Assembly (NCBI GenBank): GCA_023473785.1
Contig: JAMCYD010000029.1
Coordinates: forward strand, 1-34,984
From: Patescibacteria group bacterium
GTDB taxonomy: Bacteria; Patescibacteriota; Microgenomatia; Levybacterales; UBA12049
Length of the DNA: 34,984 bases
Direction of reading: 5' to 3'
Positions 4,494 to 34,984 of this stretch are shown piece by piece. Under the pieces are notes generated by a model. It searched no databases. It was not told the DNA's origin and saw only the letters and a program-made list of their open reading frames with translations. Position numbers and translations under genes: made by a program. Position 1 is the first letter of the stretch; each line of letters begins with the position of its first letter.

Positions 4494-4495
4494 AT

Positions 4496-13413: not shown

Positions 13414-15345
13414 TTAGGGTTTATTAAAAACAGAAGAAGCATTCGCTGGCGGAGTGCTTTGAACAGGGGTAGGGGGTAAGGCCTGTTCAGCTTGTGAGGG
13501 TGTGGGTTGTGGGCTAGCCGGCTGGAGTATTGTCGGTTTGGGCGAAGAGGCAAGACTTGCTTCTTCTTTAAGCTTCATAACCTCACGAGGATTTGATGTG
13601 ATTATATTATGCTCAAAGGGAGCAGCAATAACCTTCATAACTACATGACTTTGCCCTGCAAAAAATAATCCCTCTCCAACGGCAGACGACAAAAGTAATT
13701 CTTTTTCCCCCTCGGATAAATAAAATAATTTGGAAACTTGATCAATCTCCGTCGGACTTTGCTTAAGAAGCATTTGAATTGAAGAATTAGATAAGACAGC
13801 TCTTCCGTAGTCAGTAGATAGGAAATCTTGAATATCTTGAGTGGCAGTAGTTAAGGCCAGATAATACTTGCGAGCTCTTTTGGCAATTCCATAGACAAAA
13901 GAAGCAGAGTCTTCGTACTTCATGATGTACCATGCCTCATCTAGGATTAGAAGTCTTTTTTTAAGATTTTTTCTTATTCTCGTCCAGACGAAATCTAGGA
14001 TAATGTGCATAGCAATGGGTCGAAGTTCTTCTTCAAGTGCTTTTATGGAGAAAACAGTAAATGGATTTTTAATATCGAAGTTTGACTGCTGATTAAATAT
14101 TCCACTGAGGCTCCCTTTTATAAATTTTTCAAGACGAAGAGCAAGATTCTTAGAGCTTGGGTCCTCCATCCCCAAAAGGGTCTTATAGAGATCTTCCATA
14201 AGAGGCGGTTGATTTTTCTGGGTTGTTGGATCAACCGTAATGCCTTTTTGTCTATAGACTTCAACCAGCGCTCTGTCAAGCATTGCATCCTCTGAGGAGT
14301 CAAGCTGTCCCAAGGCAATCTTTAAGAGCCCATGTAGAGATAAAATTTTAAGCCCGAGCTCGTTTTCTCCTTCTTCATAAAGTCCCGAAAGATCAAAAGG
14401 GTTTATTTTAATTGGGTCGGATGGGGCAAAAGAAACATACTCTCCTCCAAGAGTATGGGTTAAGGCTTCGTATTCTCCCTCAGGATCAAGAATTATAACC
14501 TCTGTTCCGAACATAAATTGCCTCATTGCCTCAAGTTTTATGAGGTAAGATTTTCCAGATCCTGATTTACCAAATACAACTTCATTTGCATTTTCAAGCG
14601 AATATCTGTCAAAGATGATAAGAGATCCATTTTGTTCATTCGTTCCATACATAATTCCTTTATCTTGTGTGAGCATGGCAGAGGTAAAGGGGAAAGTTGA
14701 CGCAAGAGAGGTAGTATCCATATTTCGTGTTATAAAAAGCCTATCGCTGCCAAGCGGAATAGTTGATTTAAATCCAGCTTCCATCTGGAGCGTTGTAGGC
14801 TTTGCGATAAGAAGAATCGATGAGAGAGTAGAGGTAAGTCTTTTTGCTGCATCTTCAAGATCTTGTATGCTTTCGGAAGAAAGAGTTATATAGAGACTAA
14901 ATTGAAAAAACCTTTCAACTCCCTTTGCAAGTTGTTCCTGCAAGGCAAGTGCGTCTTCAAGCGCTGCCTGTACTTTCGGGTCAATTACCTTTCCTTCCTC
15001 AATTTGAGATGAAATCGTCGCTTCCATCTCTGCAACCTTGCGTCTTAAATCAGACAATACATCATTTGAAGATGTTGGATAGCAAAACATCGATATATTC
15101 ATCGAGTGATCAAAGTCGATAAGAGGAGAAAGCCAGTTGGGAGATACAAATCGCGGATAACCGACCACAAAAAATGTTTTATAATATAAGTCGCCAACCC
15201 GTATGAAATTGAAATCTACTTCTACGGAGGATGGGGCGATGATATCAGTTAAAGATGCTGTCCCTTTCTCAAAGATAGAAAGCCCCGGTAAGTTTTTTTG
15301 CGGGGCAAGGCTTTCTTTTTGTTGTTTTTTTCCAAATAATTTCAT
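13414..15345 (-). CDS. virB4: VirB4/TrbE/PrgJ-family type IV secretion ATPase
   Basis: 643 aa. Motifs: Walker A VFGKSGSGKSY, Walker B RLLILDEAWY, and the downstream ATQDIQDF block. The N-terminal region is typical of VirB4 (IAPSSVEVDFNFIRVGDLYYKTFFVVGYP). The C-terminal tail is Pro/Gln-rich. Confidence 0.85.
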   Translation of the reverse strand: MKLFGKKQQKESLAPQKNLPGLSIFEKGTASLTDIIAPSSVEVDFNFIRVGDLYYKTFFVVGYPRFVSPNWLSPLIDFDHSMNISMFCYPTSSNDVLSDLRRKVAEMEATISSQIEEGKVIDPKVQAALEDALALQEQLAKGVERFFQFSLYITLSSESIQDLEDAAKRLTSTLSSILLIAKPTTLQMEAGFKSTIPLGSDRLFITRNMDTTSLASTFPFTSAMLTQDKGIMYGTNEQNGSLIIFDRYSLENANEVVFGKSGSGKSYLIKLEAMRQFMFGTEVIILDPEGEYEALTHTLGGEYVSFAPSDPIKINPFDLSGLYEEGENELGLKILSLHGLLKIALGQLDSSEDAMLDRALVEVYRQKGITVDPTTQKNQPPLMEDLYKTLLGMEDPSSKNLALRLEKFIKGSLSGIFNQQSNFDIKNPFTVFSIKALEEELRPIAMHIILDFVWTRIRKNLKKRLLILDEAWYIMKYEDSASFVYGIAKRARKYYLALTTATQDIQDFLSTDYGRAVLSNSSIQMLLKQSPTEIDQVSKLFYLSEGEKELLLSSAVGEGLFFAGQSHVVMKVIAAPFEHNIITSNPREVMKLKEEASLASSPKPTILQPASPQPTPSQAEQALPPTPVQSTPPANASSVFNKP

Positions 15346-16010
15346 AAAGAACCCTCCGCTCTTACAATAGGTGTTTTAATGTCATCTGTTATCTGAGTGG
15401 TTTCAACGGTCTCTCTGTTATAGATTTCATAATAAAGCTTTACTGATTCTTCTTTTTCTAAAGTCTTTGCCCTAAGATTTAGTCTAGCTAGCTGGGACAA
15501 TAGGGACTGTGCCTTTGAGCGAAGAATTGTCTTTGCTTCATTGATGAATTCATCTTTTGATGAGTAATCTCTCTTGACTTCTGTTTTTGCTGCGCTGAGT
15601 CCCTTCTCAAGATATGAGTAGGAAATAACTATATAAAATTTTTTATCCAAAACGGAATTAACCTTAACAAGTTCTTTTACGAAATCCCTATAAAGCTTAA
15701 TCTGAGAGGACAGCATTTGATTGGAATTCTGTTGCGCCTGTTGGTCCAAAAGCTTAAGGTACGATGATATATCAAGCTTCCTGCTTCTTATGTATATTTG
15801 GATAGGAAAAGAGAGAGAATTAAGAAGCGATGCGTATGAAAAAATCTTTGTATCTTGTTCCTCTTTTGACAGAAGAGAAAAATTTGTTGCTGTAACTTCG
15901 ATTACAAGACATGCATTTCCTCCAGAGGTTATTATTGTGTCATCCTCTATGGACTCTATTTCTATAAATTTTTGTGTTGTTGCGCGTTTTCTTTGGGCAG
16001 GTTTGGCCAT
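15342..16010 (-). CDS. soluble protein resembling a free-standing VirB4 N-terminal domain
   Basis: 222 aa with no TM and a 4-nt overlap with the virB4 start. The pattern FIEIESIEDDTIITSGGNACLVIEVTATNFSLLSKEEQDTKIFSYASLLNSLSFPIQIYIRSRKLD mirrors the N-terminal module of Gram-positive VirB4 proteins and of the neighbouring ATPase itself. There is no Walker motif. Confidence 0.4.
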   Translation of the reverse strand: MAKPAQRKRATTQKFIEIESIEDDTIITSGGNACLVIEVTATNFSLLSKEEQDTKIFSYASLLNSLSFPIQIYIRSRKLDISSYLKLLDQQAQQNSNQMLSSQIKLYRDFVKELVKVNSVLDKKFYIVISYSYLEKGLSAAKTEVKRDYSSKDEFINEAKTILRSKAQSLLSQLARLNLRAKTLEKEESVKLYYEIYNRETVETTQITDDIKTPIVRAEGSL

Positions 16011-16011
16011 A

Positions 16012-17223
16012 TTATTTAACCCCCATGTCGTTAAATAAGGATCTTCTTAGCTCTTCCCTCTTGTCAGAGGATATAATTTCTAAAGGTAAAATTATTTCAC
16101 CCGTTGCGTTTATCTCTATGTTGTCAAACTTATTTTGCTCTCTTGGATCTTCGAAAAGCAATGTGTAGACGCCACTTATAATGGGAGTGGCTGAAGCAAA
16201 TTGACCAAGAGCATTTGTTTTAAATGCCCTTACTGGGTTACCGCTATGATCTTTTATTTCAACTAAAATGTTTGCCAGAGGATTTCCCCTCGGATCCTTA
16301 ACCACTCCTGTAATTAGATTTGGAGTATCTGGAAAAATTGGCGTGCCTGTAGCCTTGCCCATTGTCCTTGGGATCATTCTTGTATTTTGTGTTTCTTCTT
16401 TTGGTTGAGCCGTACTTGGGGTATAAACATTTTGTTTTTGTATTCCTATTTCCTTCTGAAGCCCAAGCAGTCTTTCTTCAAGTGCTTGTTTTTGCGAAAG
16501 AACATCCTGTAAGAATTTTTCAAGCTCAAGAACTTTTTGATGGGTAGCTGCATAACTAGGAGTTCCGATCTCTGTTCTTTCCTTTATTTTCGTCTCTGAA
16601 AGTTTTTTCTTAAGAGCCAGAACTTCAGTATCTGTTTGCTTTTCCTCTTCATCTTGTTTCATTTCTTTTTCTTCCCTAGGTTTTTCTCCTGCAAGGCGAT
16701 CTCCACTTGGTCCTTGAGTTACAATTTGTGGAGCTTGCTGGATAGGAATACTTCCTAAGATAGGAGAGAGGGACTGAAAGAAAGCCGTTTCTTTTTGATC
16801 AAGTTGGTTTTTTGGTTGTTGAGGAAGAGACTTAAGAAAATTACGCAATTTATCATCGGCAGTTGATGCTTGTTGGATTGCTGTCTGGGCTGTTTCTTGA
16901 GGAAGATTTGATGCTTGCGGAAACCATATATGTCCTCCTGTTTTTTGATAAACGTATTGAGTAGGACTAAATAGATCTTTTAAAAAATTGGTAATTACTA
17001 CATCAAGCGATCTTCCGGAGACCGGAAAAAAAGCTGTTGCAATTCCAAGAAACATGAATAGCATTGCGATTGGAATTTTAATTAGAAAAAAAATCGGCAG
17101 CGCGAAAAAAATCCATCCTAGAATCATTCCGACTGCAAGATAAGCGAATTGTTTAATTGTCATGTCTCCAATAAGCTTGAATTGAAAGCCTGTTATGTCC
17201 TGCGGTATGGGATGATTCTCCAT
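16012..17223 (-). CDS. PrgI/VirB3-like membrane protein fused to a Q-rich/coiled-coil linker and a C-terminal carboxypeptidase-regulatory-like beta-sandwich
   Basis: N-terminus IPQDITGFQFKLIGDMTIKQFAYLAVGMILGWIFF plus a second TM matches the PrgI-family layout (about nt 16939-17223). Aa 170-265 are charged and heptad-like. Aa 302-385, ITGVVKDPRGNPLANILVEIKDHSGNPV...TNALGQF...GVYTLLFE, is CarboxypepD_reg-like (about nt 16069-16320). Confidence 0.5.
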   Translation of the reverse strand: MENHPIPQDITGFQFKLIGDMTIKQFAYLAVGMILGWIFFALPIFFLIKIPIAMLFMFLGIATAFFPVSGRSLDVVITNFLKDLFSPTQYVYQKTGGHIWFPQASNLPQETAQTAIQQASTADDKLRNFLKSLPQQPKNQLDQKETAFFQSLSPILGSIPIQQAPQIVTQGPSGDRLAGEKPREEKEMKQDEEEKQTDTEVLALKKKLSETKIKERTEIGTPSYAATHQKVLELEKFLQDVLSQKQALEERLLGLQKEIGIQKQNVYTPSTAQPKEETQNTRMIPRTMGKATGTPIFPDTPNLITGVVKDPRGNPLANILVEIKDHSGNPVRAFKTNALGQFASATPIISGVYTLLFEDPREQNKFDNIEINATGEIILPLEIISSDKREELRRSLFNDMGVK

Positions 17224-20118: not shown

Positions 20119-23100
20119 TTACGGGGAAGAAGCCAAAAGTTCAAAAGCCATTTCGGCTATACGTTCGGGAGCAATTCTATTAATTAATTTTTTACTTTCG
20201 TCTGTTTCCATGACATCTACCGTTGGTAATCTTTCTTCCTCCTCTTGAGTTAGGGTTATTTGTTTTTGCTTGGGACTTGAAGCCCACATGGAAGGAGGGA
20301 AATTTCTTGGCATATAGATGGTTGCAACATTGGGTCCACCTTCAATCGCTACAGCTACATGTGCAAGCCCCGTATCATTTGACAAAACTACGTTTTGGTG
20401 ACTCAAGAGAACAGCAGCTTCAACAAGGGTAGACGATATAATATTTACTCTATCAAGGACTCCAACCCCTCTTAAGGCATTTTCTATCTCCTCTTTTGTG
20501 TAGGAAGGATCTTGAGGACCACCATTATATAAAAGATTAAACTGGTAATTAGGGTCTCTAGTAGCCATTATTTTTATGGTCTCAGCCCAATTTGAGAGGC
20601 TATATCTTTTACCGGGTATTTTGGATTCGATTACAATGCCAATTTGAGGACTTGAGGGATTAATGCTGTATCTGCTCGTAAGAGACCCGTAGATGCTCGT
20701 TTCATTAGGAGGAAGAGCTATTGTGGTTTTTGCATCTTGAGGCATAATCGTTCCTTCAGATAACGAGAAGAGATCCTCGATAAAACGTGCATATTTCGCT
20801 TGGCCATCAGAGTTATTATTATAAAGCTCAATTGCTGGAGAAAATAGGTTTGAGATAAAAGTTATTCTTTTCTTTGTTCCGTCTTCCTGAGAAGTTACTA
20901 CTGGATTCTCAGCTCTATAATGTTCAAAGTCAATGATCAAGGGGTTACGGGCAGAAGATGTTAACGCTTGAGCAGATGCATTTTGAAAACCATAACCCCT
21001 TAAGGCTGGAATTAATTTTATTTTTTCAGTTTCAAAACCTTTAAAGAGTTCTTGATGGTCCTTGTTTATTATTACGTTAATCTTGATATTCCTGCCTTCA
21101 ATAGCTTTTTTAATTGCTTGGAGATAAGCGGTTGCAATTACCGCATCTCCAATTGCTCCTCCAAGGATGACATATATTTCATCGCATCTATCAAGGGCCT
21201 CTCGGATTTCCTTTAACGCTTTTTTTCCCTCTTGCTGATCAGTCAAAATTTCTCCCGAAGAAGAGGTTCTCAAAACATCCCTAATTCTTGATCCCTTTGG
21301 AAATATCCCTTCAGGATAATATGGATAAATTAATTCGGGAGGAATAAGTGCCTCGAGAGGATGTCTTGGGGCAAAGGGGATGGGGATAATAGGTGGTGCT
21401 TCAAATGTTTCATGAAGAGGAGGAATTATATCAATGGCGAAGTGGTGGGTAATCATAGATTCTGAAGGCGGAATTGCGTTAATGATTTCAGATGGGATTG
21501 GTTGAGGAGAGGAAGTTTCCAGAGCAACCGAGGCGAGAGAATGGACAGTAGTTCCGCCGGGGATTGTTCCTTCCTGCAGTACAGAGCCTGATCTAAGAAG
21601 ATTTCCATCTTTTTCCAAAATTGCAGATGCAATTGATCTTACTCCTTGAATCTCCCCGGTTTGAGGATTAAAAAGCTCTTGCGGTAATCGGGCGTTTCCC
21701 AAATTGTCTGCTCCCAGCATAATTTGTCTTCCGTCGTTTAAATCAACTACAAAAACCATGTCGTTATGATGAATAGGACCATTTGCTGTAATCAGCTGAT
21801 CCAGCACTTGATCGTGCATTGGGGCAACTCCGGGGAGATTGGAAGGGATAAGGTCACCCTTTATGTCTCCGCCAAAATTAAGTATTCCCTTTTGATCAGT
21901 TACCCATCTGCCATTTTCATCTAAATACTGACCAATATGAAGAGTGAGCTCGTTATGAGTATGCTCCCCAGTCTGCGCAACAATATCGGGACGAAGAACA
22001 TGAAAATTCCAGGATTTTCGTACCATGTCTGTTTCGATAATGCCTTGTTTTTGAAGCTCTGAAGGAGAGGAAGATAAAAGATGGTCAACTGCAGTAACAC
22101 TACCTGCCTGATGAGCTTCAGTGACATTAAATCCGGCAGCCGCTAAATCACGATGAAGTGCTGCGAAATCAACATTTGGATTACCTATTTGGTCAAAGGT
22201 TAATGTCCCGTCTGGCGACACATGTCCTTCTAGGGTTGCATTGGCTAAAGTATCATGAATTGTTACATGGTTTGTAACTCCATTAACTTCAATGTCCAGT
22301 CCCTTCTGGTGAAAAGATTTGGTAAGCTCATGTTTTGAGATAGTTTCTTGAACACTAGAGAGCATAGATGGTGATCTTGCGGTAGTTTCGTGGATGCTGG
22401 AGGCAAAGCCAGAAGCAGAAAATCCGTTTCTTAGTTGCTCGGCTGCATCACGGCTTAACCCATCTCCGGCAACAATATTATGAAGGACTCCATCGGGTCC
22501 AATACTTCCCGAAGCAATTGCCTGGTGAGTAGCTTCGTCAACAATGGATACGGAGTGATCGGCGGGATTTATTACAGCCTGCATGTGATTGCCAAGCTCA
22601 GCACTTCCTCCATGAGCATAGAGATCTTTAAAGTGATCGATATTTGGTGGTCCTCCCTGTTCATGTTGACCAAAAAGCCCGGTTACTTTATGAATGCCTT
22701 TTTCTATGACAGTTTGCCCCGCAGAAAGTCCTGCTGCTCGCTCGCCCAGCGCAATGCCCTCCTGAACAAGAAATCCAGCTCCAAGACCTACTGTTCCTCC
22801 AAAAACAGCAGCTCCTGCCGCCTGTCGCAATCTATAACGGGCAAAGGCTCTATCCTGCTGCTCTCTGTTTTGGGTAAAACGGCTATTCCACTGTCCTGTA
22901 AATCTTGTTTCAAGTTCTTGGATCTCTTCATTTGACATTCCTGAATTTCTTAATGCTTGAATTGACCTAGCGACTGAATTTATTAGCACTAGACGGCCTT
23001 GTTCTACCTGTTCGCGGGATTGATAAGTAACCAAATCAACTCTCTCTCGGGAGGAAAAATCAAGCCTTGATTGTATTTCTGTAATTCTTCGGGCAACAGC

Positions 23101-24957
23101 CTCTCTGTTGGATGTCTGTCCTTCGGATAAGTCTTGGGAGAGAAGCTCCTCAAGGCTTTGCCTATCTGTTCCGGTAAGAAGCTCCTGCCCTCCGCCATTT
23201 ATCATTTGATCAACAGAAGCAGTATTGTAGGAAAGCTGCTCAAGTGCCTCTCTTCGTCTTGCGCCCTGAGGAATTCGCATATTGTAAGCTCGTTCAACCT
23301 GATGCGAAGCTCTATCGATTTTAAGGTCGTAGTTTCTTCTTGCTGCTGCGAAAAGAGCACCAGGCAAAAGTCCTGCTCCCGGAACTATAAATTGACTTGC
23401 TCTTGCGCCAAAACCCAGTCCTCTCATAAGGCCAAAAGTTCCAATTGAAAACCCCGCACCTATTGTGGCTGGATTAATAAGGGTACCGGTTAATCTATGT
23501 CTCTCTGCCCAGGCAATAGCTCTATCTACAGCGTTGAGCCTTACTTGTGTTTCTGCTGCCCAACTGGTATTGGCAAGCCTGACTTGTATCAGACTATCAA
23601 GCTCATCAAGTGAATACCTATGTGCTTCCAGATCTCCTTTTATAGCTTCTCCTGTTTCCAAAAGATCCGTTGCGAAATATTCTGCCAGCCTACCGAATTG
23701 ATTTGCGTCTCTTCCGAATACTGCCTGTACTTGCGGATCGTCTTGATGATTTTCTACAAATTCTCGAAGACGTTGCTGAATTTGGGCTTGATCGGCTATT
23801 CCTCCTTCAACCACAGGTCTTATAATGTCATTGATAATTGTTGTTCGCAGTTCTCCTTGTGCTTCTACCGTCTGTTGACCTTCTATAAGCGTGCCAGTTC
23901 TCAGTTGTTCTATTTTTGCTTGTCCTGCTTGCCTTTCCTCTGAAAGCCTATGGGTTGCGTCAACTGCTGCGTTTCTTACAACATCCATAGAGAGATAGGA
24001 GTTGTTATTCGCAAGCATTTCCCGGCTTGCTCTCTCTATATATCTTTGCCTGTGAAACTCCTCCATTACGCGAAGTCCTATTTTCCTTGGCCAATTTAAG
24101 GGATTTAAAAAGCTTCCTCTTCTCATTTCATTTCTTAATTGCTCATCCGCAAGTTCCCTTGCTCTTTTTTGAACATCCAGAGTTCTATTGATAATCATAA
24201 CTTCTCTTCGGACTTGTTCAGGAGACTCGGGTTCTGGTTCGGCGACTTCTTCTGATTCAGGCTCTGGCGTCGTCTCAGAAGGAGCCGTAGAAGTTCCATC
24301 TGTTGGTGGTTGCGCTGGGGTAATTTCAGTAGCTTCAGATGTTGGCGCTGATTCAGGTTCTGGTGAGGGTGGTGAAGGCTGAGTAGATGAAGGAGGAGTA
24401 ATTAACTCCCGGCGTCCAAAAAGAATTCTGCCTGCTTCCAGAAAATCATCATGGGGATTTCCCTTTGTAAGTCTTGGGTCAGATGATATTCTCTGAGATT
24501 CCTGGTTTATTCTTGCTATCTTACGCGAGTAGTCTTTTTTTGCCGCCCCCCTATAATATTCCTGCGAATTTCTATGAAGAATTTTTTCCAGTTCCTTGTA
24601 TTCTGTTTCATCCTCAGCTGTTAACTCGCCGCTCTTGACTCTGTCTCTAAGGAATAGGATCAGCTCATCAACGGGCACATATTCTCTCTGAGAGAATTTT
24701 TCCCCATCTTCGCTTTCGAATCTATTTAGATAAGATGCTTTTCCTTTATCTAGAGTTTCCCCCCTGATGTGCTTAATTAATTCTCTTGTAGCCTGCTGTT
24801 GTGGGGTTAATTTGTCTTCTGGATAACTTTCAAATATTGAATAAGCGGAATTGAAGGCATTAATTACAGTTTCACGACTGTCTCGAATTTCAACTCTTCT
24901 TGTGGCATCATGAGTGATTGGTGCGCCAACACCTGCTTCTCCTTCTGCTTCTGGCAT
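20119..24957 (-). CDS. 1612-aa multidomain membrane protein with a C-terminal GT9 (heptosyltransferase-like, GT-B) domain
   Basis: - Aa 186-247: Pro/Glu/Ser/Thr-rich linker (nt 24217-24402).
- Two Gly-rich hydrophobic hairpins: aa 495-540 (nt 23338-23475) and aa 712-745 (nt 22723-22824).
- Internal ~50-aa repeat at aa 798-851 and 893-943.
- Pro-rich segment at aa 1150-1215.
- GT9 blocks IYVILGGAIGDAVIATAYLQAIKK and VVLSNDTGLAHVAVAI (aa ~1258-1612, nt 20122-21186). Confidence 0.6.
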   Translation of the reverse strand: MPEAEGEAGVGAPITHDATRRVEIRDSRETVINAFNSAYSIFESYPEDKLTPQQQATRELIKHIRGETLDKGKASYLNRFESEDGEKFSQREYVPVDELILFLRDRVKSGELTAEDETEYKELEKILHRNSQEYYRGAAKKDYSRKIARINQESQRISSDPRLTKGNPHDDFLEAGRILFGRRELITPPSSTQPSPPSPEPESAPTSEATEITPAQPPTDGTSTAPSETTPEPESEEVAEPEPESPEQVRREVMIINRTLDVQKRARELADEQLRNEMRRGSFLNPLNWPRKIGLRVMEEFHRQRYIERASREMLANNNSYLSMDVVRNAAVDATHRLSEERQAGQAKIEQLRTGTLIEGQQTVEAQGELRTTIINDIIRPVVEGGIADQAQIQQRLREFVENHQDDPQVQAVFGRDANQFGRLAEYFATDLLETGEAIKGDLEAHRYSLDELDSLIQVRLANTSWAAETQVRLNAVDRAIAWAERHRLTGTLINPATIGAGFSIGTFGLMRGLGFGARASQFIVPGAGLLPGALFAAARRNYDLKIDRASHQVERAYNMRIPQGARRREALEQLSYNTASVDQMINGGGQELLTGTDRQSLEELLSQDLSEGQTSNREAVARRITEIQSRLDFSSRERVDLVTYQSREQVEQGRLVLINSVARSIQALRNSGMSNEEIQELETRFTGQWNSRFTQNREQQDRAFARYRLRQAAGAAVFGGTVGLGAGFLVQEGIALGERAAGLSAGQTVIEKGIHKVTGLFGQHEQGGPPNIDHFKDLYAHGGSAELGNHMQAVINPADHSVSIVDEATHQAIASGSIGPDGVLHNIVAGDGLSRDAAEQLRNGFSASGFASSIHETTARSPSMLSSVQETISKHELTKSFHQKGLDIEVNGVTNHVTIHDTLANATLEGHVSPDGTLTFDQIGNPNVDFAALHRDLAAAGFNVTEAHQAGSVTAVDHLLSSSPSELQKQGIIETDMVRKSWNFHVLRPDIVAQTGEHTHNELTLHIGQYLDENGRWVTDQKGILNFGGDIKGDLIPSNLPGVAPMHDQVLDQLITANGPIHHNDMVFVVDLNDGRQIMLGADNLGNARLPQELFNPQTGEIQGVRSIASAILEKDGNLLRSGSVLQEGTIPGGTTVHSLASVALETSSPQPIPSEIINAIPPSESMITHHFAIDIIPPLHETFEAPPIIPIPFAPRHPLEALIPPELIYPYYPEGIFPKGSRIRDVLRTSSSGEILTDQQEGKKALKEIREALDRCDEIYVILGGAIGDAVIATAYLQAIKKAIEGRNIKINVIINKDHQELFKGFETEKIKLIPALRGYGFQNASAQALTSSARNPLIIDFEHYRAENPVVTSQEDGTKKRITFISNLFSPAIELYNNNSDGQAKYARFIEDLFSLSEGTIMPQDAKTTIALPPNETSIYGSLTSRYSINPSSPQIGIVIESKIPGKRYSLSNWAETIKIMATRDPNYQFNLLYNGGPQDPSYTKEEIENALRGVGVLDRVNIISSTLVEAAVLLSHQNVVLSNDTGLAHVAVAIEGGPNVATIYMPRNFPPSMWASSPKQKQITLTQEEEERLPTVDVMETDESKKLINRIAPERIAEMAFELLASSP

Positions 24958-25388: not shown

Positions 25389-25418
25389 AGTATGAACTAG
25401 TTAATTTATATTTGTCAA
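25389..25418 (-). promoter_or_regulatory. sigma70-like promoter placed for a leaderless transcript of the 139-aa/giant-protein operon
   Basis: On the minus strand: TTGACA (25418-25413), 18-nt spacer, CATACT (25394-25389), then 6 nt to the ATG at 25382. Its -35 hexamer overlaps, on the opposite strand, the -35 of the divergent plus-strand promoter. Confidence 0.3.
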
Positions 25419-25440
25419 GCACTACCTCTTCTTATATACT
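25412..25440 (+). promoter_or_regulatory. sigma70-like promoter placed for a leaderless transcript of the HExxH membrane protein gene
   Basis: TTGTCA (25412-25417), 17-nt spacer, TATACT (25435-25440), then 7 nt to the ATG at 25448. Confidence 0.35.
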
Positions 25441-25447
25441 TAAACAA

Positions 25448-26143
25448 ATGGTTTTTCTTTTAATTTTCATTTTTGAACTTACTTTTCTATATTTCCTATC
25501 TAATCTTTTACAAAAATCCTTATCTAGGGCGATCTTTAGTATCGTTAAAAGCGCAACAGCCACCGTTAATGTTCTTTTGATCCTTTTTCTTCCAGGAGTT
25601 ATAATCCATGAGCTTTCTCATTTTCTGGTAGCAAGTCTGCTTTTTGTCAAGACAGGGGAAATTAAATTTTTGCCAGAGATAACAGAAGAGGGAACAAGAC
25701 TTGGAAGTGTCGGAATTGGGAAAACCGATCCAATAAGGCGGGCAATTATTGGTTTTGCCCCGGTTCTTTTGGGGCTGATAGTTCTCCTTGGACTAACCTA
25801 TTATTTAACGCAGGGGAGCGCGTCAATTTCCATCATCAAACTAAGCGGAGTATATGGAATATTTTTTTATCTAATTTTAATTTATCTGTTATTTGCTGTT
25901 GGCAACACCATGTTTTCAAGTAAAAAAGATCTAGAGGGTACGATTGAGCTTTTTATTGTTCTGGGGATAATTTTCTTTGCATCTTATGTGGCGGGAATAA
26001 GAATGCAAGCTACCTGGATACAGACTTTGTTAAGAAACGAGATAATAGATTTTATTAAAAGAGTAGATTTGTTCTTTATTATTCCTATCGGAATCGATAT
26101 TTTTATATATTTATTAGCCGTCGCGTTTATTAAAAGGAGATAA
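25448..26143 (+). CDS. polytopic membrane protein with an intramembrane HExxH motif (putative zinc metalloprotease, M50/DUF3267-like)
   Basis: LPGVIIHELSHFLVA lies at the edge of a TM helix, with at least 5 further TM helices. The track ORF begins at TTG 25412. The ATG at 25448 (MVFLLIFIF...) is preferred because a good promoter occupies 25412-25440. Confidence 0.45.
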   Translation: MVFLLIFIFELTFLYFLSNLLQKSLSRAIFSIVKSATATVNVLLILFLPGVIIHELSHFLVASLLFVKTGEIKFLPEITEEGTRLGSVGIGKTDPIRRAIIGFAPVLLGLIVLLGLTYYLTQGSASISIIKLSGVYGIFFYLILIYLLFAVGNTMFSSKKDLEGTIELFIVLGIIFFASYVAGIRMQATWIQTLLRNEIIDFIKRVDLFFIIPIGIDIFIYLLAVAFIKRR

Positions 26144-26151
26144 GAAGTGAA

Positions 26152-26463
26152 TTATTTACAATTGCCAAAGCCAAATTGCTTGATGCAGGGAACATTGGTG
26201 ATATCACTTATAACGTTGACGATGAAAAATGAAAGCAGAACAATAATCAGGCCAATGATTGCATAAGTTAGGGTATTTCTTGCATCCTCAACTAGTTTTG
26301 GCTGACCTCCCGATCTGATAAATTTCAGTCCTGCGAATATAATAAAAAATACAGCGGCAATCGCTGAAAAAATAAAAATCCATTTGACAACATTCTGAAA
26401 GACTATAGGAATACAGCTAAGCGTTGCTACTCCCTCGGGGCTTAAACAGCTCGTCCAGTCCAT
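26152..26463 (-). CDS. VirB2/TrbC-like T4SS pilin paralogue 1
   Basis: 103 aa with two TM helices around the shared core FAGLKFIRSGGQPKLVEDARNTLTYAIIGLIIV. An N-terminal Cys-x10-Cys loop is present and there is no signal peptide. Confidence 0.6.
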   Translation of the reverse strand: MDWTSCLSPEGVATLSCIPIVFQNVVKWIFIFSAIAAVFFIIFAGLKFIRSGGQPKLVEDARNTLTYAIIGLIIVLLSFFIVNVISDITNVPCIKQFGFGNCK

Positions 26464-26515
26464 ATAATAAGATTAGCAAGGAAAAAATAAAAAGGCAAGA
26501 TTAGAACAGAAGAAC

Positions 26516-26953
26516 TTATGGGCACTTTAATGGATTTCCTGCGAGATCATTGATTGTCAGATTGGTTACCGGATTAGGCTGGCCAAGCAGCTGGAAAATT
26601 AATCCAATGATGAAAAAGGCACCGACAACTATAACAAGACCTACTATTGCGGCAACAATGTGATTTCTTGCCGTTTCAACCGCACTTTTATCTCCGCCTG
26701 ATAATATCCACTTAACGCCACCAAAGATAAGAAATATCACCGCAATAACTATGCCGATTATAAAAACAAGCTGAATTAAGAATTGAGGAACTTTTGTCAG
26801 ACAGATATTACCAATTGATCCTGCCGGAGGAGCAATGGTTACGTTTTGTGCAAAAGCAGAAGCAGCAAGTAATAAATAAGATGAAGCCGTCGCGATAAAT
26901 CCTAATGATTTCCTCATTAATCTTATAATAGGGAGCTTTTTTGGGTTTGTCAA
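26516..26953 (-). CDS. VirB2/TrbC-like T4SS pilin paralogue 2
   Basis: 145 aa with a signal peptide ending AFAQ. Core: FGGVKWILSGGDKSAVETARNHIVAAIVGLVIV. Confidence 0.6.
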   Translation of the reverse strand: MTNPKKLPIIRLMRKSLGFIATASSYLLLAASAFAQNVTIAPPAGSIGNICLTKVPQFLIQLVFIIGIVIAVIFLIFGGVKWILSGGDKSAVETARNHIVAAIVGLVIVVGAFFIIGLIFQLLGQPNPVTNLTINDLAGNPLKCP

Positions 26954-26961
26954 GTCCCGAT

Positions 26962-27294
26962 TTAGCTGGGGCCAAGCGGGAAAAGACTAGGTTTACCGCC
27001 CAGAATTGTTATGATAAGTCTTACTATGGTAAAGGCGGCGGTAATAACTACAAGGCCAATGATTGAGTACGTAAGTCTTGCCCGCGCCTGCTGAATTTGC
27101 TCCTTCTCTCCGCCTGATAATATCCATTGAATGCCAGAGTAGATAACGATAATAACTGCAATTATAATGCCTCCGGCAAAGAGAAAATTAAGCCCCATCT
27201 GAATAATTTTTTGCCCTGTATCCATTCCGCCGGTTGGAACATCCCTAGGCGCTTCTATCGGGGTGCCGCTGATTGATAAAGATAAATACCTCAT
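26962..27294 (-). CDS. VirB2/TrbC-like T4SS pilin paralogue 3
   Basis: 110 aa. Core: YSGIQWILSGGEKEQIQQARARLTYSIIGLVVI. Confidence 0.6.
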   Translation of the reverse strand: MRYLSLSISGTPIEAPRDVPTGGMDTGQKIIQMGLNFLFAGGIIIAVIIVIYSGIQWILSGGEKEQIQQARARLTYSIIGLVVITAAFTIVRLIITILGGKPSLFPLGPS

Positions 27295-27303
27295 AATTAG
27301 TTG

Positions 27304-28476
27304 CTATTTGCCTAGTCCTGGAATTCGGAGTATATCAACGCCGATTATTTGAAGTATGACAAGTGAGAATATTATAAAAAGAAGGCCGATTATTGCAGAT
27401 GTAAGTTGGTCCTTTGCTCCCTCAAGTCTTTCGGGGTTTCCTCGTGATTCCATCAGTTTGTAGCCTGATAATATGATGAGAAGAAGAGCTATTCCGCCTG
27501 AGAAACCAAGAATGAGAGAAAAAATAGATTTTATAAAGCCTGTAGGATCCGTTCCGATCTGGCCTATTGCAGTATTTACACTCTTGCAGCTTCCATTTGG
27601 CCCAAGAGTAGCGCAGGGCGGTGGCGGAGGAGAAAGAGGAGTTTCATCGTTTGCAGCTTGTGTATCGGTAAGAAGCGGATCCTTGATAAGCTCTCCCACG
27701 GATCCGTTGGTTTGATCAACAATAACTTGGGCTTCGTAAAAATCAATATCGTCTACCTTGTCGCATCCCTTAATGCTCAATGTATATGAACCAGCGCTTA
27801 ATTCGTTAGGGTTCTTAGGTACGATTATAGATACTGGGGTATCCGTCTGGGTGATTTTAGTGCAATTGGAATCATAAGATTTATGTTTGCCTTCCGCATT
27901 ATTCTTGAGGGTTAACTTGTAGCTATTTCTATCATCTCCGCCTTGTCTTAATTTCTTCTGAGACATAGATACAGTGATTTGACTGCCGGGAGTCGGATTA
28001 TCAGGGCTTATTGAAATATTCTCATTCTCGAGTTCCGGAAAATAATAATGAACGTAGAATTGGGCAATTGCAGCTTGTTCTTTTGTTTTTGCGTTGAAAA
28101 GAGCGAGTCCATATGTATGTCCGCCATAAAACCAATCTCTGCCTGCTTTACAGTTTTCTTTCACGGTGTATTCTTCGCCTCCACAGATAGTAGTAAAAGA
28201 TAAAGTACCTTCCGAATTAGCATCAATTCTCGCCATTTTCACAAAAGGTGCGTGTACGCCAACAATACATTCATTGATTGTTTGGCGGTTGCACACAAAA
28301 TATGTTGCCCCTGGAATTAGGTTGTCAAACGTGACGGAAACCGTAAGAACAGTCTCATCTATAGAGTCTTTATCTGGGGTAATTGTAACATTGGCAAAAG
28401 CATTATCGGAGCGCAGGAAAAGAAATACTAGAATAAAGAAAAAGAATATTGCAAATTTGGAAAAAATTCTCTTCAC
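27304..28476 (-). CDS. fusion of a ~255-aa secreted Cys-containing beta-rich domain to a C-terminal VirB2/TrbC-like pilin module
   Basis: GTG start and a signal peptide ending AFANV. Aa 28-281 form the extracellular domain (nt 27634-28395). The linker is SPPPPPCATLGPNGSC. Aa 288-390 form the pilin core LSGYKLMESRGNPERLEGAKDQLTSAIIGLLFI, colinear with the three short paralogues. Confidence 0.55.
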   Translation of the reverse strand: MKRIFSKFAIFFFFILVFLFLRSDNAFANVTITPDKDSIDETVLTVSVTFDNLIPGATYFVCNRQTINECIVGVHAPFVKMARIDANSEGTLSFTTICGGEEYTVKENCKAGRDWFYGGHTYGLALFNAKTKEQAAIAQFYVHYYFPELENENISISPDNPTPGSQITVSMSQKKLRQGGDDRNSYKLTLKNNAEGKHKSYDSNCTKITQTDTPVSIIVPKNPNELSAGSYTLSIKGCDKVDDIDFYEAQVIVDQTNGSVGELIKDPLLTDTQAANDETPLSPPPPPCATLGPNGSCKSVNTAIGQIGTDPTGFIKSIFSLILGFSGGIALLLIILSGYKLMESRGNPERLEGAKDQLTSAIIGLLFIIFSLVILQIIGVDILRIPGLGK

Positions 28477-28482
28477 ACTTTT

Positions 28483-28511
28483 ATAGTAGACAAGTTTTAG
28501 GGAATTTGCAA
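28483..28511 (-). promoter_or_regulatory. sigma70-like promoter of the pilin operon, placed for a leaderless transcript
   Basis: On the minus strand: TTGCAA (28511-28506), 17-nt spacer, TACTAT (28488-28483), then 6 nt to the GTG at 28476. Confidence 0.3.
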
Positions 28512-28559: not shown

Positions 28560-28982
28560 TTACGTCGGACGGTTTTTGAATTGAGACCAGGCTCTTGACA
28601 GTTTATATAATTGACGAGCGGATTTATCGTAGCCGTCAACAAGTTCCCCCACAAGTGTTTTGTTAATTTGGTAGATATCACGACACTGCTCAAGACTTAC
28701 GATTGTTTCGTTGCATTCTCCAAGTGCATCATCCAAATACTTTTGAAAACCTGCTTTTTGGTGTCTTTTTCCATATCCTTCGGCAATGAGTCTTGGTATT
28801 GCCTTACACGATCTATTTAACTGATCTTTTAAGTCATATCTTTCAGAATCAGGAAGTTTCGGAAGAATTTCTCTTATAACCTTAAGCATCAACTTATAAG
28901 TGTTTCGATAAACTTCTAAATCTCTAAAGCTTTTTATCGGTCGATAACTATTGTCTATCTTTTTGACGCTTAACGTATCCAT
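28560..28982 (-). CDS. four-helix-bundle protein (TIGR02436 / 23S rRNA intervening-sequence protein / Avd-like family)
   Basis: FRDLEVYRNTYKLMLKV...PDSERYDLKDQLNRSCKAIPRLIAEGYGKRHQK..F.KYLDDALGECNETIVSL matches the family consensus block for block. Confidence 0.85.
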   Translation of the reverse strand: MDTLSVKKIDNSYRPIKSFRDLEVYRNTYKLMLKVIREILPKLPDSERYDLKDQLNRSCKAIPRLIAEGYGKRHQKAGFQKYLDDALGECNETIVSLEQCRDIYQINKTLVGELVDGYDKSARQLYKLSRAWSQFKNRPT

Positions 28983-28990
28983 ACTTCGAA

Positions 28991-29022
28991 ACGAGCATCG
29001 TAACCGTTACCGTTTATTACGG
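28991..29022. repeat. right arm of the inverted repeat bracketing the four-helix-bundle gene; overlaps the stop codon of the upstream regulator gene
   Basis: acgagcatcgtaaccgttaccgtttattacgg. The stop codon of the 443-aa ORF (29017-29019) lies inside this arm. Confidence 0.55.
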
Positions 29023-30348
29023 AACAAATCTTATTCCTCTGCCTTTTATTGTTTGTAAATGTCCGGGATTATTAGGGTCTTCTTCGATTTTTTTACGCAG
29101 TCTAAAGATAAGCTGATCTAAGGCCTGATCTGTTACGCCTTCAACCGATTTTGTATCCTGCCAGACCGATTTTATAACCTCGTTTCTATCCAATATTTTA
29201 CCCTGATTTTCCAATAAATATTTTAATAATTTAAATTCAGATGATGTAAGGATTTCAGAGAGCGGAAGATCTCCCTTTTTTATCACATTGGTTTGAGAAT
29301 CAAATACTAATTGCTGTGCCCTTCCGTAGCCTTGGCGAAGGAGGGTTGGTATAAAATCCGCAAAAAGAGGAACGCTTATCTTTCCGTCTTTTACAAGACC
29401 AATGTTGGTAAGGTAATCACAGACAGTTAGCTGATTGGCAGATATCATTTTTTGTTCTTCTGGATTTAACGAAGACCAAATTTCAAATAAACTTCCCTGA
29501 ATGCCTTTTTGCTCAAGCAGAAATTCGCTTAGTCCTTCTCTAGTTGCTAGTTGCCAATTGCTAGTTGCTAATATTGCTTCAAGGCAGAGGCGGGTTAGCT
29601 TGCCGTGAGCTCCTGTTAATTCTATTATTGAATCAATATTTTTTTTATTAATCTTCTTACCTGAAACTTTTTCAAGATAGGAAATTCTAAAGTCAAGTCC
29701 TGGTTTATCAAATAACGGCAGATAAACAATATTCCCAGCCAAAAATTCATAAAAATCTGCAAAAAGCATTGGTTCAACCAAGTCATCCAAGGATCTGCTC
29801 AATGAAAAAACCACGGAAAATCGGTACTTGGCTCGATTTCGAATAACTCTTAGATTGGTAAAGAATTCAGATGAAAGCATTGGGATGTATTCTTCGAAGC
29901 GGTCAAAAAGAAAAACAACAGTCAGTTCTTTCTCTATGCATAAAAAATCGATTGCTCTTTTAAGTCCCTGAAATAAAACAAGCTCATCGTTTGCTTTTAA
30001 GCTTTCATTGAGAATTTCATTCACTTTTTTATAATCCTCATTCATTTTTCGCTCGCGCAGAGAATCCAAAAGGGACAGGAAAATAAATTTCATAACCCCA
30101 AGGAGAGGTTTTTTGCGAACTTCAGAGAAATTAAGAAGCACAAAATGAAACCATTTTTGATTTTCCCCTAAGTGATTTATGCGAATACCTGTGTTATAGG
30201 TCAGAAGTCCCAAGAGATTTGATCTTCCGATTCCGGGTAAACCAATCAGCTGGCAGGAATTTCCATTTCTAACAAACCCCAATATCTTCTCGATTTCCGA
30301 AAACCTGCTCGTGTCTGGGTAGAGCGACTCAAAGTGAGTAGATTCCAT
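29017..30348 (-). CDS. AAA/STAND-like ATPase fused to a C-terminal OmpR/PhoB-type winged-helix DNA-binding domain
   Basis: N-terminal P-loop GLPGIGRSNLLG and Walker-B-like VVFLFDRFEE. The C-terminus SEFKLLKYLLENQGKILDRNEVIKSVWQD...DQALDQLIFRLRKKIE...IKGRGIRF is the Trans_reg_C pattern. No receiver domain is present. Confidence 0.65.
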   Translation of the reverse strand: MESTHFESLYPDTSRFSEIEKILGFVRNGNSCQLIGLPGIGRSNLLGLLTYNTGIRINHLGENQKWFHFVLLNFSEVRKKPLLGVMKFIFLSLLDSLRERKMNEDYKKVNEILNESLKANDELVLFQGLKRAIDFLCIEKELTVVFLFDRFEEYIPMLSSEFFTNLRVIRNRAKYRFSVVFSLSRSLDDLVEPMLFADFYEFLAGNIVYLPLFDKPGLDFRISYLEKVSGKKINKKNIDSIIELTGAHGKLTRLCLEAILATSNWQLATREGLSEFLLEQKGIQGSLFEIWSSLNPEEQKMISANQLTVCDYLTNIGLVKDGKISVPLFADFIPTLLRQGYGRAQQLVFDSQTNVIKKGDLPLSEILTSSEFKLLKYLLENQGKILDRNEVIKSVWQDTKSVEGVTDQALDQLIFRLRKKIEEDPNNPGHLQTIKGRGIRFVP

Positions 30349-30394: not shown

Positions 30395-30799
30395 TTAAAG
30401 ATTTTTCTTGCCTTTCATTGTCAATACGCTTGAGCCAATAATTTTACTAATTTCCTCAATTTCTTTGGTAAATTTTAAGATTTTCTCTGTCTCTTCTGGT
30501 AATAATTCTTTTAACATAGCCAGCCAGTATTTTGCTTCATTGGCAGACTTTAAAGATATTTGAAAGTAGTTTAAAAATTCTTTTTTAGAGGAGGATGCTT
30601 TTGCCTCTACGATATTTGCTCCGACTGAAGTAATAGATCTGATTAGCTGATCGGAAATTATTTTAGTGGACTGCTTATAGCTTAGGCTTTCAAGAAATCT
30701 AATGATATTTATGGATAAATAAAAAGCTCTATATTTTAATTCTGTCTTTGAATTTTTAACTTGGTTTTGATTTTTGATTTTTGGGATTTGATCTAACAT
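30395..30799 (-). CDS. four-helix-bundle protein (TIGR02436 / 23S rRNA intervening-sequence protein / Avd-like family), second copy
   Basis: YRAFYLSINIIRFLESL...SDQLIRSITSVGANIVEAKASSSKKEFLNYFQISLKSANEAKYWLAML matches the family consensus. The N-terminus is low-complexity K/N/Q-rich. Confidence 0.85.
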   Translation of the reverse strand: MLDQIPKIKNQNQVKNSKTELKYRAFYLSINIIRFLESLSYKQSTKIISDQLIRSITSVGANIVEAKASSSKKEFLNYFQISLKSANEAKYWLAMLKELLPEETEKILKFTKEIEEISKIIGSSVLTMKGKKNL

Positions 30800-33935: not shown

Positions 33936-34964
33936 TTAAAATCTAAAAGTGTTCCTGAGAAGCCCTGTCCATCCTCCTCTTTGTCCGGGAGTTTGTATCT
34001 TAGTAAAGTAGGCAGCTGTACTTCTTCCAGCACCCATTGGCACACTAGCTCCTACTCCAATTGCGGCACCGACTGTAGATAGATCAATCTTAGGAGCCTT
34101 AAGAGCTGCTTTCATCATGTTGACAATATTGGGAGTAGCGAGGATTATTCCAAGTCCAATAAGCGCGCCGATTGCCTTTGTGTCTGATGGGTTAGCAATA
34201 AGAGGAGGGACAAACTGTCCGGTTGTCTGCGTCGATCCAAAAGCATCAATAAAAACTCTTGCTATGAGAAACATTACAATTGTTGCAGGAAAAGCTGCGA
34301 GATTGGCTACGATATCCCTGATCCAGGTATTAAAGCTTAATTGGCTTCCCGGAAAAAGGCCTGCTACGACCCAAAAGGGCGCAAAAACCACATCTAAAAG
34401 AATCATAACGTATGCTGATATAAGTGCGAACCAGAGCCGAATCAGCGCCCAAAGAATAGCAATCGAGATAATCAGAAAAGCAATAGTTGAAGCAACAAAC
34501 CCTACAATTGTCTTTGCGAAAAGAAAGCCTGCAGCTCCTCCTACGAGACCGCCTACAACAGCACCTACAGTATTGCCAATAGTCCATCCCGCAGCAGTAC
34601 CTGTGCCTGGCGCTCCAAATATTGTTCCTAGGGCAGCCCCTCCGATCCCAAATACCGTCTTGAAGACGCCACCGGCTTTTTTCCCGATAGCTTGCCCGAC
34701 AAATCCACCGATTAATCCAACTATGACTTTCCCCGGCGGATTATCGGCAAGGGGAGCAATAAAATTTCCAACTGATTTTGCAGGTTTCCACGCAATATCA
34801 GCAAGTCCGAGCTGTAGTCCGAGCTTTTCTCCTCCCCCGCCCATATTGTTTGCAGCCTCAATAGGATTAGAGGATTGAGCTATCTTCATCACTGTATCTT
34901 CTTTCTGTAAATTTGGATCAGCAGACGTAATTACATTTCCTGTTAAGTAAATAGATGTATACAT
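33936..34964 (-). CDS. glycine-rich polytopic membrane protein, candidate VirB6/TrbL-like channel component
   Basis: 342 aa. Gly-zipper segments (GLIGGFVGQAIG, GIGGAALGTIFGAPGTGTAAG, GAVVGGLVGGAAG) are followed by TM helices. The pattern LISAYVMILLDVVFAPFWVVAGLFPGSQLSFNTWIRDIVANL resembles the TrbL/VirB6 core. An alternative start exists at Met26. Confidence 0.4.
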   Translation of the reverse strand: MYTSIYLTGNVITSADPNLQKEDTVMKIAQSSNPIEAANNMGGGGEKLGLQLGLADIAWKPAKSVGNFIAPLADNPPGKVIVGLIGGFVGQAIGKKAGGVFKTVFGIGGAALGTIFGAPGTGTAAGWTIGNTVGAVVGGLVGGAAGFLFAKTIVGFVASTIAFLIISIAILWALIRLWFALISAYVMILLDVVFAPFWVVAGLFPGSQLSFNTWIRDIVANLAAFPATIVMFLIARVFIDAFGSTQTTGQFVPPLIANPSDTKAIGALIGLGIILATPNIVNMMKAALKAPKIDLSTVGAAIGVGASVPMGAGRSTAAYFTKIQTPGQRGGWTGLLRNTFRF

Positions 34965-34984
34965 AATATCGATTAAAAAGCCTG

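Follow-up and report, generated by a model that had tools for sequence, protein, structure and literature searches.

A VirB2-like pilin with a probable extracellular head in a conserved four-gene array of Levybacteria-like Patescibacteria

Why would a bacterium maintain four different pilin genes in tandem, and why would the first of them carry a large additional domain ahead of its pilin segment? This question arises from a 34,984-nucleotide stretch of DNA (contig JAMCYD010000029.1 of assembly GCA_023473785.1; hereafter called the window) from a Levybacteria-like member of the Patescibacteria, in which a pilin array resides among type IV secretion system (T4SS) genes near dnaA. Specifically, four consecutive open reading frames (ORFs) on the minus strand, termed genes 1 through 4 and running from position 28476 down to 26152, encode proteins of 390, 110, 145 (or, from a more likely start codon, 133) and 103 amino acids (aa). 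An earlier inspection of the letters by themselves (the original prediction) proposed that all four are paralogues resembling VirB2/TrbC pilins, and that the first is a fusion that displays a secreted domain as a built-in adhesin.

Profile searches place the four ORFs in a T4SS pilin family rather than in an unrelated family of proteins with two transmembrane (TM) segments. Each exceeds the 26.6-bit gathering cut-off of Pfam family PF18895 (T4SS_pilin): gene 1 (27304-28476, on the minus strand like the others, with a GTG start) by scoring 36.7 bits at aa 312-378, gene 2 (26962-27294) with 35.6 bits, gene 3 (26516-26917) with 32.9 bits, and gene 4 (26152-26463) with 38.4 bits. Matches to the TrbC/VirB2 family PF04956 are weaker. 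Three ORFs score 21.2 (gene 2), 19.0 and 16.3 bits (E-values 3e-4 to 0.011) and do not reach the cut-off of 27.9 bits, and a Pfam scan yields no PF04956 match for the 103-aa ORF; these sub-threshold scores therefore denote distant homology and not membership. All four also match NCBIfam model NF045849, a family from Mycoplasma integrative and conjugative elements (ICEs), at 21.8-32.2 bits (E-values 6e-8 to 1e-4), short of the equivalog cut-off of 40. Judging from these scores, the four proteins appear clearly related to the Mycoplasma family but not members of it.

The kinship of the four proteins with one another, likewise part of the original prediction, is borne out by their alignment. They are colinear over TM1, the motif G-x-(K/Q)-(W/F/L)-(I/M)-x-S-(G/R)-G, a charged loop, A-(R/K), the motif (A/S)-I-(I/V)-G-L, and TM2, such that every motif is common to all four, and their pairwise identities are 31-35%. 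The two long helices and short charged loop that define VirB2-type pilins are evident both from hydropathy and from an AlphaFold2 (AF2) model of the separate pilin module (helices 41-73 and 78-113), and the array is encoded together with VirB4 and other T4SS core genes (PrgI/VirB3, a TrsD-like gene and a VirB6-like gene are in the window). The array also falls within the definition of a VirB2 array given in a recent survey, namely at least two PF18895 or PF04956 genes in tandem or one gene apart, in an assembly that encodes VirB4 (Quinonero-Coronel et al., 2025, PMC12102498). We consider the identity and architecture of four VirB2-like subunits close to certain.

Gene 1 differs from a minimal pilin by all that precedes its core, and the predicted parts of the fusion (signal peptide, beta-rich Cys-containing region, SPPPPPC, and two hydrophobic helices) are indeed present. 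The signal peptide occupies aa 1-28 (MKRIFSKF...SDNAFA/N; 28393-28476, minus strand, as for the remaining parts), with a hydrophobic stretch at aa 3-21 and an alanine at position 28, conserved to at least 90% across the aligned family, after which cleavage would occur. Two beta-sandwich domains follow, the first at aa 29-143 (28048-28392) with the Cys pairs C62/C70 and C98/C109, and the second at aa 155-253 (27718-28014) with C205/C238; each is delineated by the AF2 model, Cys conservation and Foldseek matches. Together these domains form a folded head of about 225 residues (aa 29-253). The head is trailed by a flexible linker of about 35 residues (aa 254-287; 27616-27717) that has pLDDT values of 58-73, lacks secondary structure, and ends in SPPPPP. 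A poly-Pro stretch before a Cys is found in most aligned gene 1 orthologues. The size of about 255 aa originally proposed for the secreted domain is corrected accordingly.

The linker leads into a Cys-bridged beta-hairpin neck (aa 288-308; 27553-27615) with the pattern C-x8-C-x-V-x-T-A-I-G and strands at 288-291, 297-302 and 305-308, in which C288, C297, T302 and G305 are invariant among 15 orthologues. The pilin core itself (27331-27546), as defined by hydropathy and the AF2 models, consists of a helix at 311-343, the charged loop SRGNPE, and a helix at 348-382. A Cys-x(9-10)-Cys loop before TM1 had been proposed for both gene 1 and gene 4; it holds for the 103-aa product of gene 4 (C6-x10-C17) but not for the fusion, in which the spacing is C288-x8-C297.

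The AF2 model of the full gene 1 product, generated with the family alignment as input, has a mean pLDDT of 89 and a pTM of 0.70, and presents two immunoglobulin (Ig)/fibronectin type III (FN3)-like beta-sandwiches, the Pro-rich linker, a three-stranded Cys hairpin, and a VirB2-like helical hairpin. When Foldseek was run against the Protein Data Bank (PDB) and a viral library, the model matched tandem FN3/Ig-like pairs (NCAM, fibronectin, RbmA, transglutaminase barrels, and phage Big/FN3 decorations) with E-values of about 1e-5 and TM scores of 0.2-0.4. The likeness is one of fold only, as the head has no match to curated Ig/FN3/Big or other Pfam/NCBIfam families, and the same Foldseek libraries returned no specific adhesin or lectin family.

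A word-indexed search with the head recovered only a sister strain with 83% identity, as if the head were an orphan domain. This notion was discarded when an exhaustive HMMER search with the head alone returned 75 cluster representatives. Family members are 340-640 aa long except for three, which comprise two short fragments and a 1138-aa repeat protein that was excluded from the alignment. Because 69 of 76 aligned members end in PF18895 (E-value of 0.001 or less), the union of head and pilin is a recurrent architecture and not a one-off event. The Cys columns are well preserved in the same alignment: C62/C70 is present in 66/76 and C98/C109 in all 76 members, whereas the individual columns are occupied in 62 and 60 members for C205 and C238, and in 70 and 55 for C288 and C297.

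The arrangement of the four genes is conserved among relatives. A scan of one genome per GTDB species with the whole-protein alignment yielded 80 loci, largely from Levybacteria, Levyibacteriota, Microgenomates and unclassified Patescibacteria metagenome-assembled genomes plus one member of the Saccharimonadales; many third-party annotation (TPA) bins among them carry other labels (mostly 'uncultured Gammaproteobacteria'), which we took to be mislabels. Pilin genes in these loci were identified by searching called ORFs with a hidden Markov model (HMM) of the pilin core. Exactly four pilins in a fixed order, one long (median 395 aa) followed by three of about 110, 139 and 105 aa, are found in 55 arrays including that of the window. 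In the 54 others, the best match of each pilin is the window paralogue at its own position in 53 arrays for position 1, 33 for position 2, 53 for position 3 and 52 for position 4. The four positions therefore represent old orthologous groups rather than recent duplicates.

Each position has its own signature. At position 1, a signal peptide and a head are followed in most aligned orthologues by poly-Pro, and then by C-x8-30-C-x-V-x-T-A-I-G. Position 2 proteins lack both a signal peptide and Cys residues, as does gene 2 of the window (43/52 orthologues are Cys-free). At position 3 there is a signal peptide (MRKSLGF...SAFA/Q in the window) and mostly two Cys residues; as originally noted, one Cys of gene 3 precedes TM1 and the other is at the C-terminus. 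Proteins at position 4 have no signal peptide and carry two conserved Cys pairs. In gene 4 these are C6/C17 before TM1 and C93/C102 after TM2 (columns 98%, 98%, 83% and 83% conserved), and the second of these pairs had been overlooked. Exceptions to the four-gene rule occur in some relatives (L049, L079, L028, L067 and L077), with arrays of 6-7 pilins or two headed pilins in a row, and the 595-aa first pilin of L049 has an extra domain of about 170 aa after TM2.

Whereas the pilin core is conserved, the head is not. As anticipated, relatives in the survey share the pilin core but differ in the N-terminal domain that it carries. At least 100 residues precede the core in 51 of the 55 first genes, with head lengths ranging among orthologues from about 110 to more than 560 residues, and the heads fall into at least 19 clusters that are mutually unrelated by BLASTP, the largest of which (24 members) includes the head of the window. 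The remaining heads comprise Cys-rich repeats, Pro-rich stretches and other beta-rich domains, and a Pfam search of the proteins bearing ten unrelated heads from other species matched the pilin core alone. Across arrays, the gene 1 core retains a mean identity of 64% to that of the window. Loci L013 and L035 have gene 1 cores that are 98% identical and heads that are 49% identical; between L013 and L029, the gene 1 cores are 84% and the gene 3 and gene 4 cores 90% identical, and the heads share no detectable similarity.

The same contrast is seen between close strains. Relative to the sister strain, the ratio of nonsynonymous to synonymous substitution rates (dN/dS) is 0.36 for the head, 0.07 for the linker and core, and 0.01-0.11 for genes 2-4. 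A co-occurring and more abundant strain, represented by contigs from mine-tailings metagenomes, differs by 9.2% plus indels over the fusion gene versus 5.4% over the flanking 1.9 kb. A diversity-generating retroelement (DGR) seems an unlikely source of this variation, as heads differ by whole-domain replacement and not by targeted substitutions. Pfam scans of the larger window ORFs found no DGR-type reverse transcriptase, only an RNase H-type gene (4059-4514; RVT_3/RNase H). As a separate observation, the 9-nucleotide spacer between genes 1 and 2 (27295-27303) carries a 36-nucleotide insertion in the sister strain, and this junction is thus indel-prone.

The placement of Cys residues bears on topology. 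In the 55 arrays, Cys residues are paired and lie almost exclusively before TM1 or after TM2, with only 9 of 220 proteins having one inside the TM1-loop-TM2 segment. From the signal peptides of genes 1 and 3, the disulfide-containing Ig-like fold and this Cys placement, the head and both pilin termini are predicted to be extracytoplasmic. The head is therefore probably outside the cell, in keeping with the claim that the N-terminal domain is not cytoplasmic, and an N-out/C-out topology like that of VirB2/TrbC is predicted for the pilins.

Two promoter-like elements accompany the array. The stronger, a sigma-70-type sequence (TTGACA-N17-TATTAT; 26925-26953, minus strand) matching the consensus at 11/12 positions, lies just after the gene 2 stop codon and ends 7 nucleotides before the ATG of gene 3 at 26917. 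A promoter with at least 10/12 matches is found at this site in 48/54 arrays versus 3/54 shuffles, where it is mostly 4-14 nucleotides from the end of the -10 box to a start codon that opens a signal peptide beginning M-(K/R)-K. The weaker, non-consensus element (TTGCAA-N17-TACTAT; 28483-28511, minus strand), read directly from the sequence, ends 6 nucleotides before the GTG of gene 1, and TTGCA(A/T)-N17-TAC(G/T)AT recurs 6 nucleotides before the gene 1 GTG or ATG in at least 39/55 arrays, a count for which rows with failed start calls were dropped by hand. None of the pilin genes has a visible Shine-Dalgarno motif ahead of its start codon. Since the promoters end only 6-7 nucleotides before the start codons of genes 1 and 3, the sequences suggest leaderless or near-leaderless mRNAs.

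These data also settle which start codon of gene 3 is the more likely. The conserved promoter and the orthologues favor ATG 26917, giving 133 aa, the same length as in the sister genome. The alternative start at TTG 26953, giving 145 aa, was rejected on the grounds that this TTG is the first codon of the conserved TTGACA -35 box. The range of 103-145 aa given earlier for the three minimal paralogues needs amendment in its upper limit.

How new is this arrangement? Tandem VirB2-like arrays have been published for this phylum, so the array itself is not. Three articles describe an essential array (SEML1_0006-0019) in Southlakia epibionticum (Wang et al., 2023, PMC10633639), a survey of 441 VirB2-like arrays with 2-11 genes of about 25% identity that are abundant in Microgenomatia and were suggested to provide host-range versatility (PMC12102498), and a review of Patescibacteria tandem arrays near dnaA (PMC12857230). 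The locus in the window resembles these in its PF18895 membership, its tandem divergent pilins beside VirB4, PrgI and VirB6, and its chromosomal site close to dnaA, where no nearby relaxase or coupling protein was seen. The passages of these articles that were searched describe no head-bearing pilin, head hypervariability, fixed four-gene order or internal promoter, and the headed first pilin thus appears to be previously undescribed, as far as these texts go.

Comparisons with more distant systems highlight what is shared and what is not. Like the diderm pilins VirB2, TrbC and TraA (PF04956; 8EXH, 8CUE), the window proteins have a two-helix hairpin, a short charged loop and a predicted N-out/C-out topology. 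Unlike them, they belong to a monoderm host, two of the four lack a leader peptide, and their scores are below the PF04956 cut-off. VirB2/TrbC pilins are cyclised head-to-tail, whereas the tails here are Cys-bridged and extracellular. With Mbov_0395/MMCAP2_0565 of Mycoplasma ICEs (NF045849), the four proteins align over nearly the full model length, and both systems are of the mating-pair-formation FATA (MPF-FATA) type from wall-less or monoderm cells. The NF045849 model has only 80 positions, a length which indicates that this family is apparently headless, and its genes reside on mobile elements, in contrast to the chromosomal, housekeeping-like genes of the window. This profile-level link hints that monoderm T4SSs may have pilin-like subunits of their own and need not have borrowed them from diderm systems.

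For the head, the parallels are of logic rather than of descent. VirB5, TraC of pKM101 and CagL offer a functional analogy only, as minor tip components that initiate assembly and contact the target cell (such tip roles are reviewed in PMC12857230). VirB5 is a separate soluble helical protein unrelated in sequence and fold, whereas the contact domain here would be covalently part of a pilin. In type IV pili, initiator minor pilins of the TcpB/CofB type combine a shared pilin stalk with a bulky, variable C-terminal domain at the tip. The logic is the same, yet the protein family and assembly machine are unrelated and the extra domain here is N-terminal. Finally, the tandem VirB2 genes of Bartonella and Anaplasma, as cited in PMC12102498, also form rows of several genes for which adaptation to host surfaces has been hypothesized. 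In the window system the paralogues are ancient and position-specific, and variability is located in a fused head instead of across interchangeable copies.

What, then, might such a locus do? We propose that it constitutes the pilin module of a chromosomal monoderm-type T4SS, with four non-redundant VirB2-like subunits in fixed order. The gene 1 product would be exported by the Sec system and its signal peptide cut after AFA28, leaving a C-terminal helical hairpin embedded in the membrane, its two ends facing outward and its charged loop inward in the manner of VirB2/TrbC, and an N-terminus in which two disulfide-stabilised Ig/FN3-like domains would be held on the proline-rich tether of about 35 residues. 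The VirB4 machine would then pull pilins from the membrane and polymerise them, so that a filament or stalk is built. Bulk subunits may come from genes 3 and 4, which have their own strong and conserved promoter, and the headed pilin may be a minor subunit that is incorporated first or sparsely, in a way that would leave its head exposed on the surface of the structure or at its tip. In this position, the head may contact the host cell in the role of the VirB5-type tip adhesins of diderm systems, and its rapid divergence and replacement would fit a need to follow host surfaces that differ or change. No VirB5 match was obtained in Pfam scans of the window ORFs, and to our knowledge no VirB5 has been reported for monoderm systems. 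Pilus formation, stoichiometry, tip location and adhesin function are steps that we infer, and we give the full chain, from four non-redundant subunits to a pilin-adhesin chimera whose head contacts the host, about an even chance of being correct. On a tentative and less probable extension of this proposal, Levybacteria-type cells would build a heteromeric T4SS filament from four dedicated subunits, in which the swappable, fast-evolving head would serve as the determinant of host specificity in these obligate epibionts and as a covalent replacement for the VirB5 tip adhesin.

Several points weigh against this proposal. No pilus of a Patescibacteria T4SS has been seen, and the literature credits the system with no more than a 'potential' to form one (PMC12857230). 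The VirB2 family offers no precedent for a load of about 280 residues at the N-terminus, which may not be compatible with filament packing. Furthermore, the modeled head fold is generic, with no recognisable binding site or known adhesin family. Although the top PDB matches of the pilin module in Foldseek are VirB2 of the T-pilus (8exh and 8cue; 27-29% identity) and the conjugative pilus of A. pernix, this likeness is not significant (E-values of 1-4, or about 1 at best; 8dfu has a TM score of 0.61 on the target), and a sequence profile built from the four paralogues matched nothing in the PDB even at E-values up to 10. The related loci were ranked by similarity to the fusion, so similar heads are enriched among the first 25 or so. 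The stoichiometry argument has promoter consensus strength as its sole and indirect hint that genes 3 and 4 encode bulk subunits, and read-through from gene 1 could blur any difference in expression; a search for RNA sequencing runs returned none.

Consider, as the main alternative, that the headed protein is not a pilus subunit at all, but a membrane-anchored surface protein or a fixed component of the T4SS channel in cells that make no pilus. The hairpin would then be only an anchor, the long and flexible proline-rich segment would cross the cell wall or S-layer much like the wall-spanning regions of Gram-positive surface proteins, the head would stand at the cell surface beside the secretion channel, and the short paralogues would make up either a short stalk within the wall or a portion of the translocon. 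Such a role would suit the monoderm MPF-FATA systems, the nearest relatives of the Patescibacteria T4SS, which form no pilus (PMC12102498), and the related Mycoplasma ICE family is named only 'pilin-like'. Moreover, VirB6-like proteins encoded upstream also match the pilin-core HMM, and T4SSs may thus use such a hairpin as a membrane module more generally. We nevertheless judge this reading somewhat unlikely. The gene 1 core is conserved as well as or better than the short paralogues and shares all of their motifs, which is more than a simple anchor would require; a set of four conserved paralogues whose extracellular tails are Cys-bridged resembles the subunits of a polymer; and the Southlakia array is both essential and distinct from VirB6 (PMC10633639). 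If the protein is indeed a pilin, it could also be the major one, giving a 'bottle-brush' filament with a head on every or every n-th subunit, in which the short paralogues would serve to initiate, terminate or space the polymer. In favor of this, gene 1 is promoter-proximal and has a conserved promoter to itself, no other core among the four is as well conserved (mean 64%), and a tethered head is sterically conceivable, since pilin termini face outward in solved conjugative pili. This version is nonetheless improbable, given that the consensus promoter precedes genes 3-4 and not gene 1, that heads of such disparate lengths are hard to fit into a fixed lattice, and that, by a geometric estimate that was not computed, a five-start helix with a tandem Ig pair on each subunit would suffer from severe crowding. 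Least of all do we expect the four genes to be interchangeable variant pilins for antigenic or phase variation in the style of Bartonella and Anaplasma, which strikes us as very improbable. The tandem layout and 31-35% identity are compatible with that analogy, which is suggested in the published survey (PMC12102498), but the strict position-specific orthology and length classes in 55 arrays, the separate signal-peptide and Cys pattern of each position, the lack of visible recent duplication, and the concentration of variation in one region of one gene all speak against it.

The pilin-adhesin proposal is of broader interest for several reasons. Much of the diversity of uncultivated bacteria lies in the Patescibacteria, which depend on host cells. 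The T4SS, its pilin array included, is essential in the one genetically workable Patescibacteria species. The headed pilin provides a concrete candidate for the contact or specificity element, and its fusion is a lineage-wide rule rather than a single case. The head could be expressed as a soluble protein for binding tests and tracked in metagenomes against candidate hosts; if the head does determine host specificity, its type in metagenomic sequences could predict parasite-host pairing. We know of no VirB2-family member with a folded ectodomain, and the gene 1 product would be the first known, just as the fixed operon of four subunits would give a first indication that a T4SS filament can be heteromeric.

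The neighbouring genes confirm the association with a T4SS that had been proposed for the array. The window is a low-GC chromosome segment (about 0.32-0.46) around the replication origin, with rnpA, yidC, a Jag-like KH/R3H gene, dnaA and dnaN. Its T4SS genes include a VirB4-like ATPase (13414-15345, minus strand; P-loop_TraG at 108 bits, AAA_10 and DUF87), a 222-aa TrsD/TraC-like protein (15342-16010, minus strand) that matches NCBIfam TrsD and the N-terminal part of the Mycoplasma ICE VirB4, with PF26593 in the sister locus, and a 403-aa PrgI/VirB3-like protein (16012-17223, minus strand) identified by profile matches. A T4SS-related M23 peptidase is encoded at 11575-13395, and a VirB6/TrbL-like polytopic membrane protein (33936-34984, minus strand; TrbL at 20.7 bits, below the cut-off) remains open at the end of the window, which cuts it. 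In the 54 related loci, PrgI (35 loci), the TrsD-like gene (35) and VirB4 (24) directly follow the array, and VirB6-like homologues are located about 4.6 kb upstream in 25. Upstream of the array in the window is a candidate regulator of 443 aa (29017-30348, minus strand) with a P-loop-like N-terminal part and an OmpR/PhoB-type winged helix (Trans_reg_C at 66.5 bits). Its homologues are present in 41/54 loci, mostly directly upstream of the array (median offset -44 bp; 39/41 on the same strand), and the regulator may control the pilins. This order of regulator, array, and then PrgI-TrsD-VirB4 places the pilins physically within the T4SS operon in most relatives. The window strain differs in that the gene for a 1612-aa protein, along with a few others, has been inserted so as to separate the pilin array from PrgI, and the sister genome (GCA_023379505.1, locus L001) has the identical gene order.

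The inserted 1612-aa protein (20119-24957, minus strand) combines a low-complexity stretch rich in Pro, Ser and Glu with hydrophobic segments at its center and a GT9 heptosyltransferase-like domain at its C-terminus, and occupies the same position in only 3/54 related loci. The regulator is flanked by two genes of family PF05635 ('23S rRNA-intervening sequence protein'; 28560-28982 and 30395-30799, both on the minus strand), and related copies are near the arrays in 13-16 of 54 loci. The copy at 28560-28982 is absent both from sister locus L001 and from the more abundant co-occurring strain, where 28493 is joined to 29033 within a contig, which identifies it as an insertion at the strain level that separates the regulator from the pilin operon. 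Converging on the end of the array from the plus strand (25412-26143) is a gene for a 243-aa polytopic membrane protein with a metalloprotease-like HELSH (HExxH) motif and no Pfam or NCBIfam match, homologues of which directly follow the array in 16/54 loci; speculatively, it is a candidate pilin-processing enzyme.

Three observations concern the T4SS components themselves. An ORF of 350-590 aa about 4.6 kb upstream of the array in relatives (for example, L001 3902-5680) matches the pilin-core HMM near its N-terminus. We take it, from its position, to be the full-length VirB6-like homologue, in which case this protein would start with a pilin-like helical hairpin. VirB6 is reported as 'scarce' in Microgenomatia (PMC12102498), and such a divergent form may be the missing VirB6 of this group. 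The 222-aa TrsD/TraC-like ORF aligns with positions 98-253 of the Mycoplasma ICE VirB4 model NF045975, and a single Mollicutes protein thus appears to be split here into two genes (TrsD-like and VirB4). Lastly, the PrgI/VirB3-like protein carries a CarboxypepD_reg-like beta-sandwich at aa 304-360, presumed to be extracellular, making it the second T4SS membrane component of this locus with an Ig-like extension.

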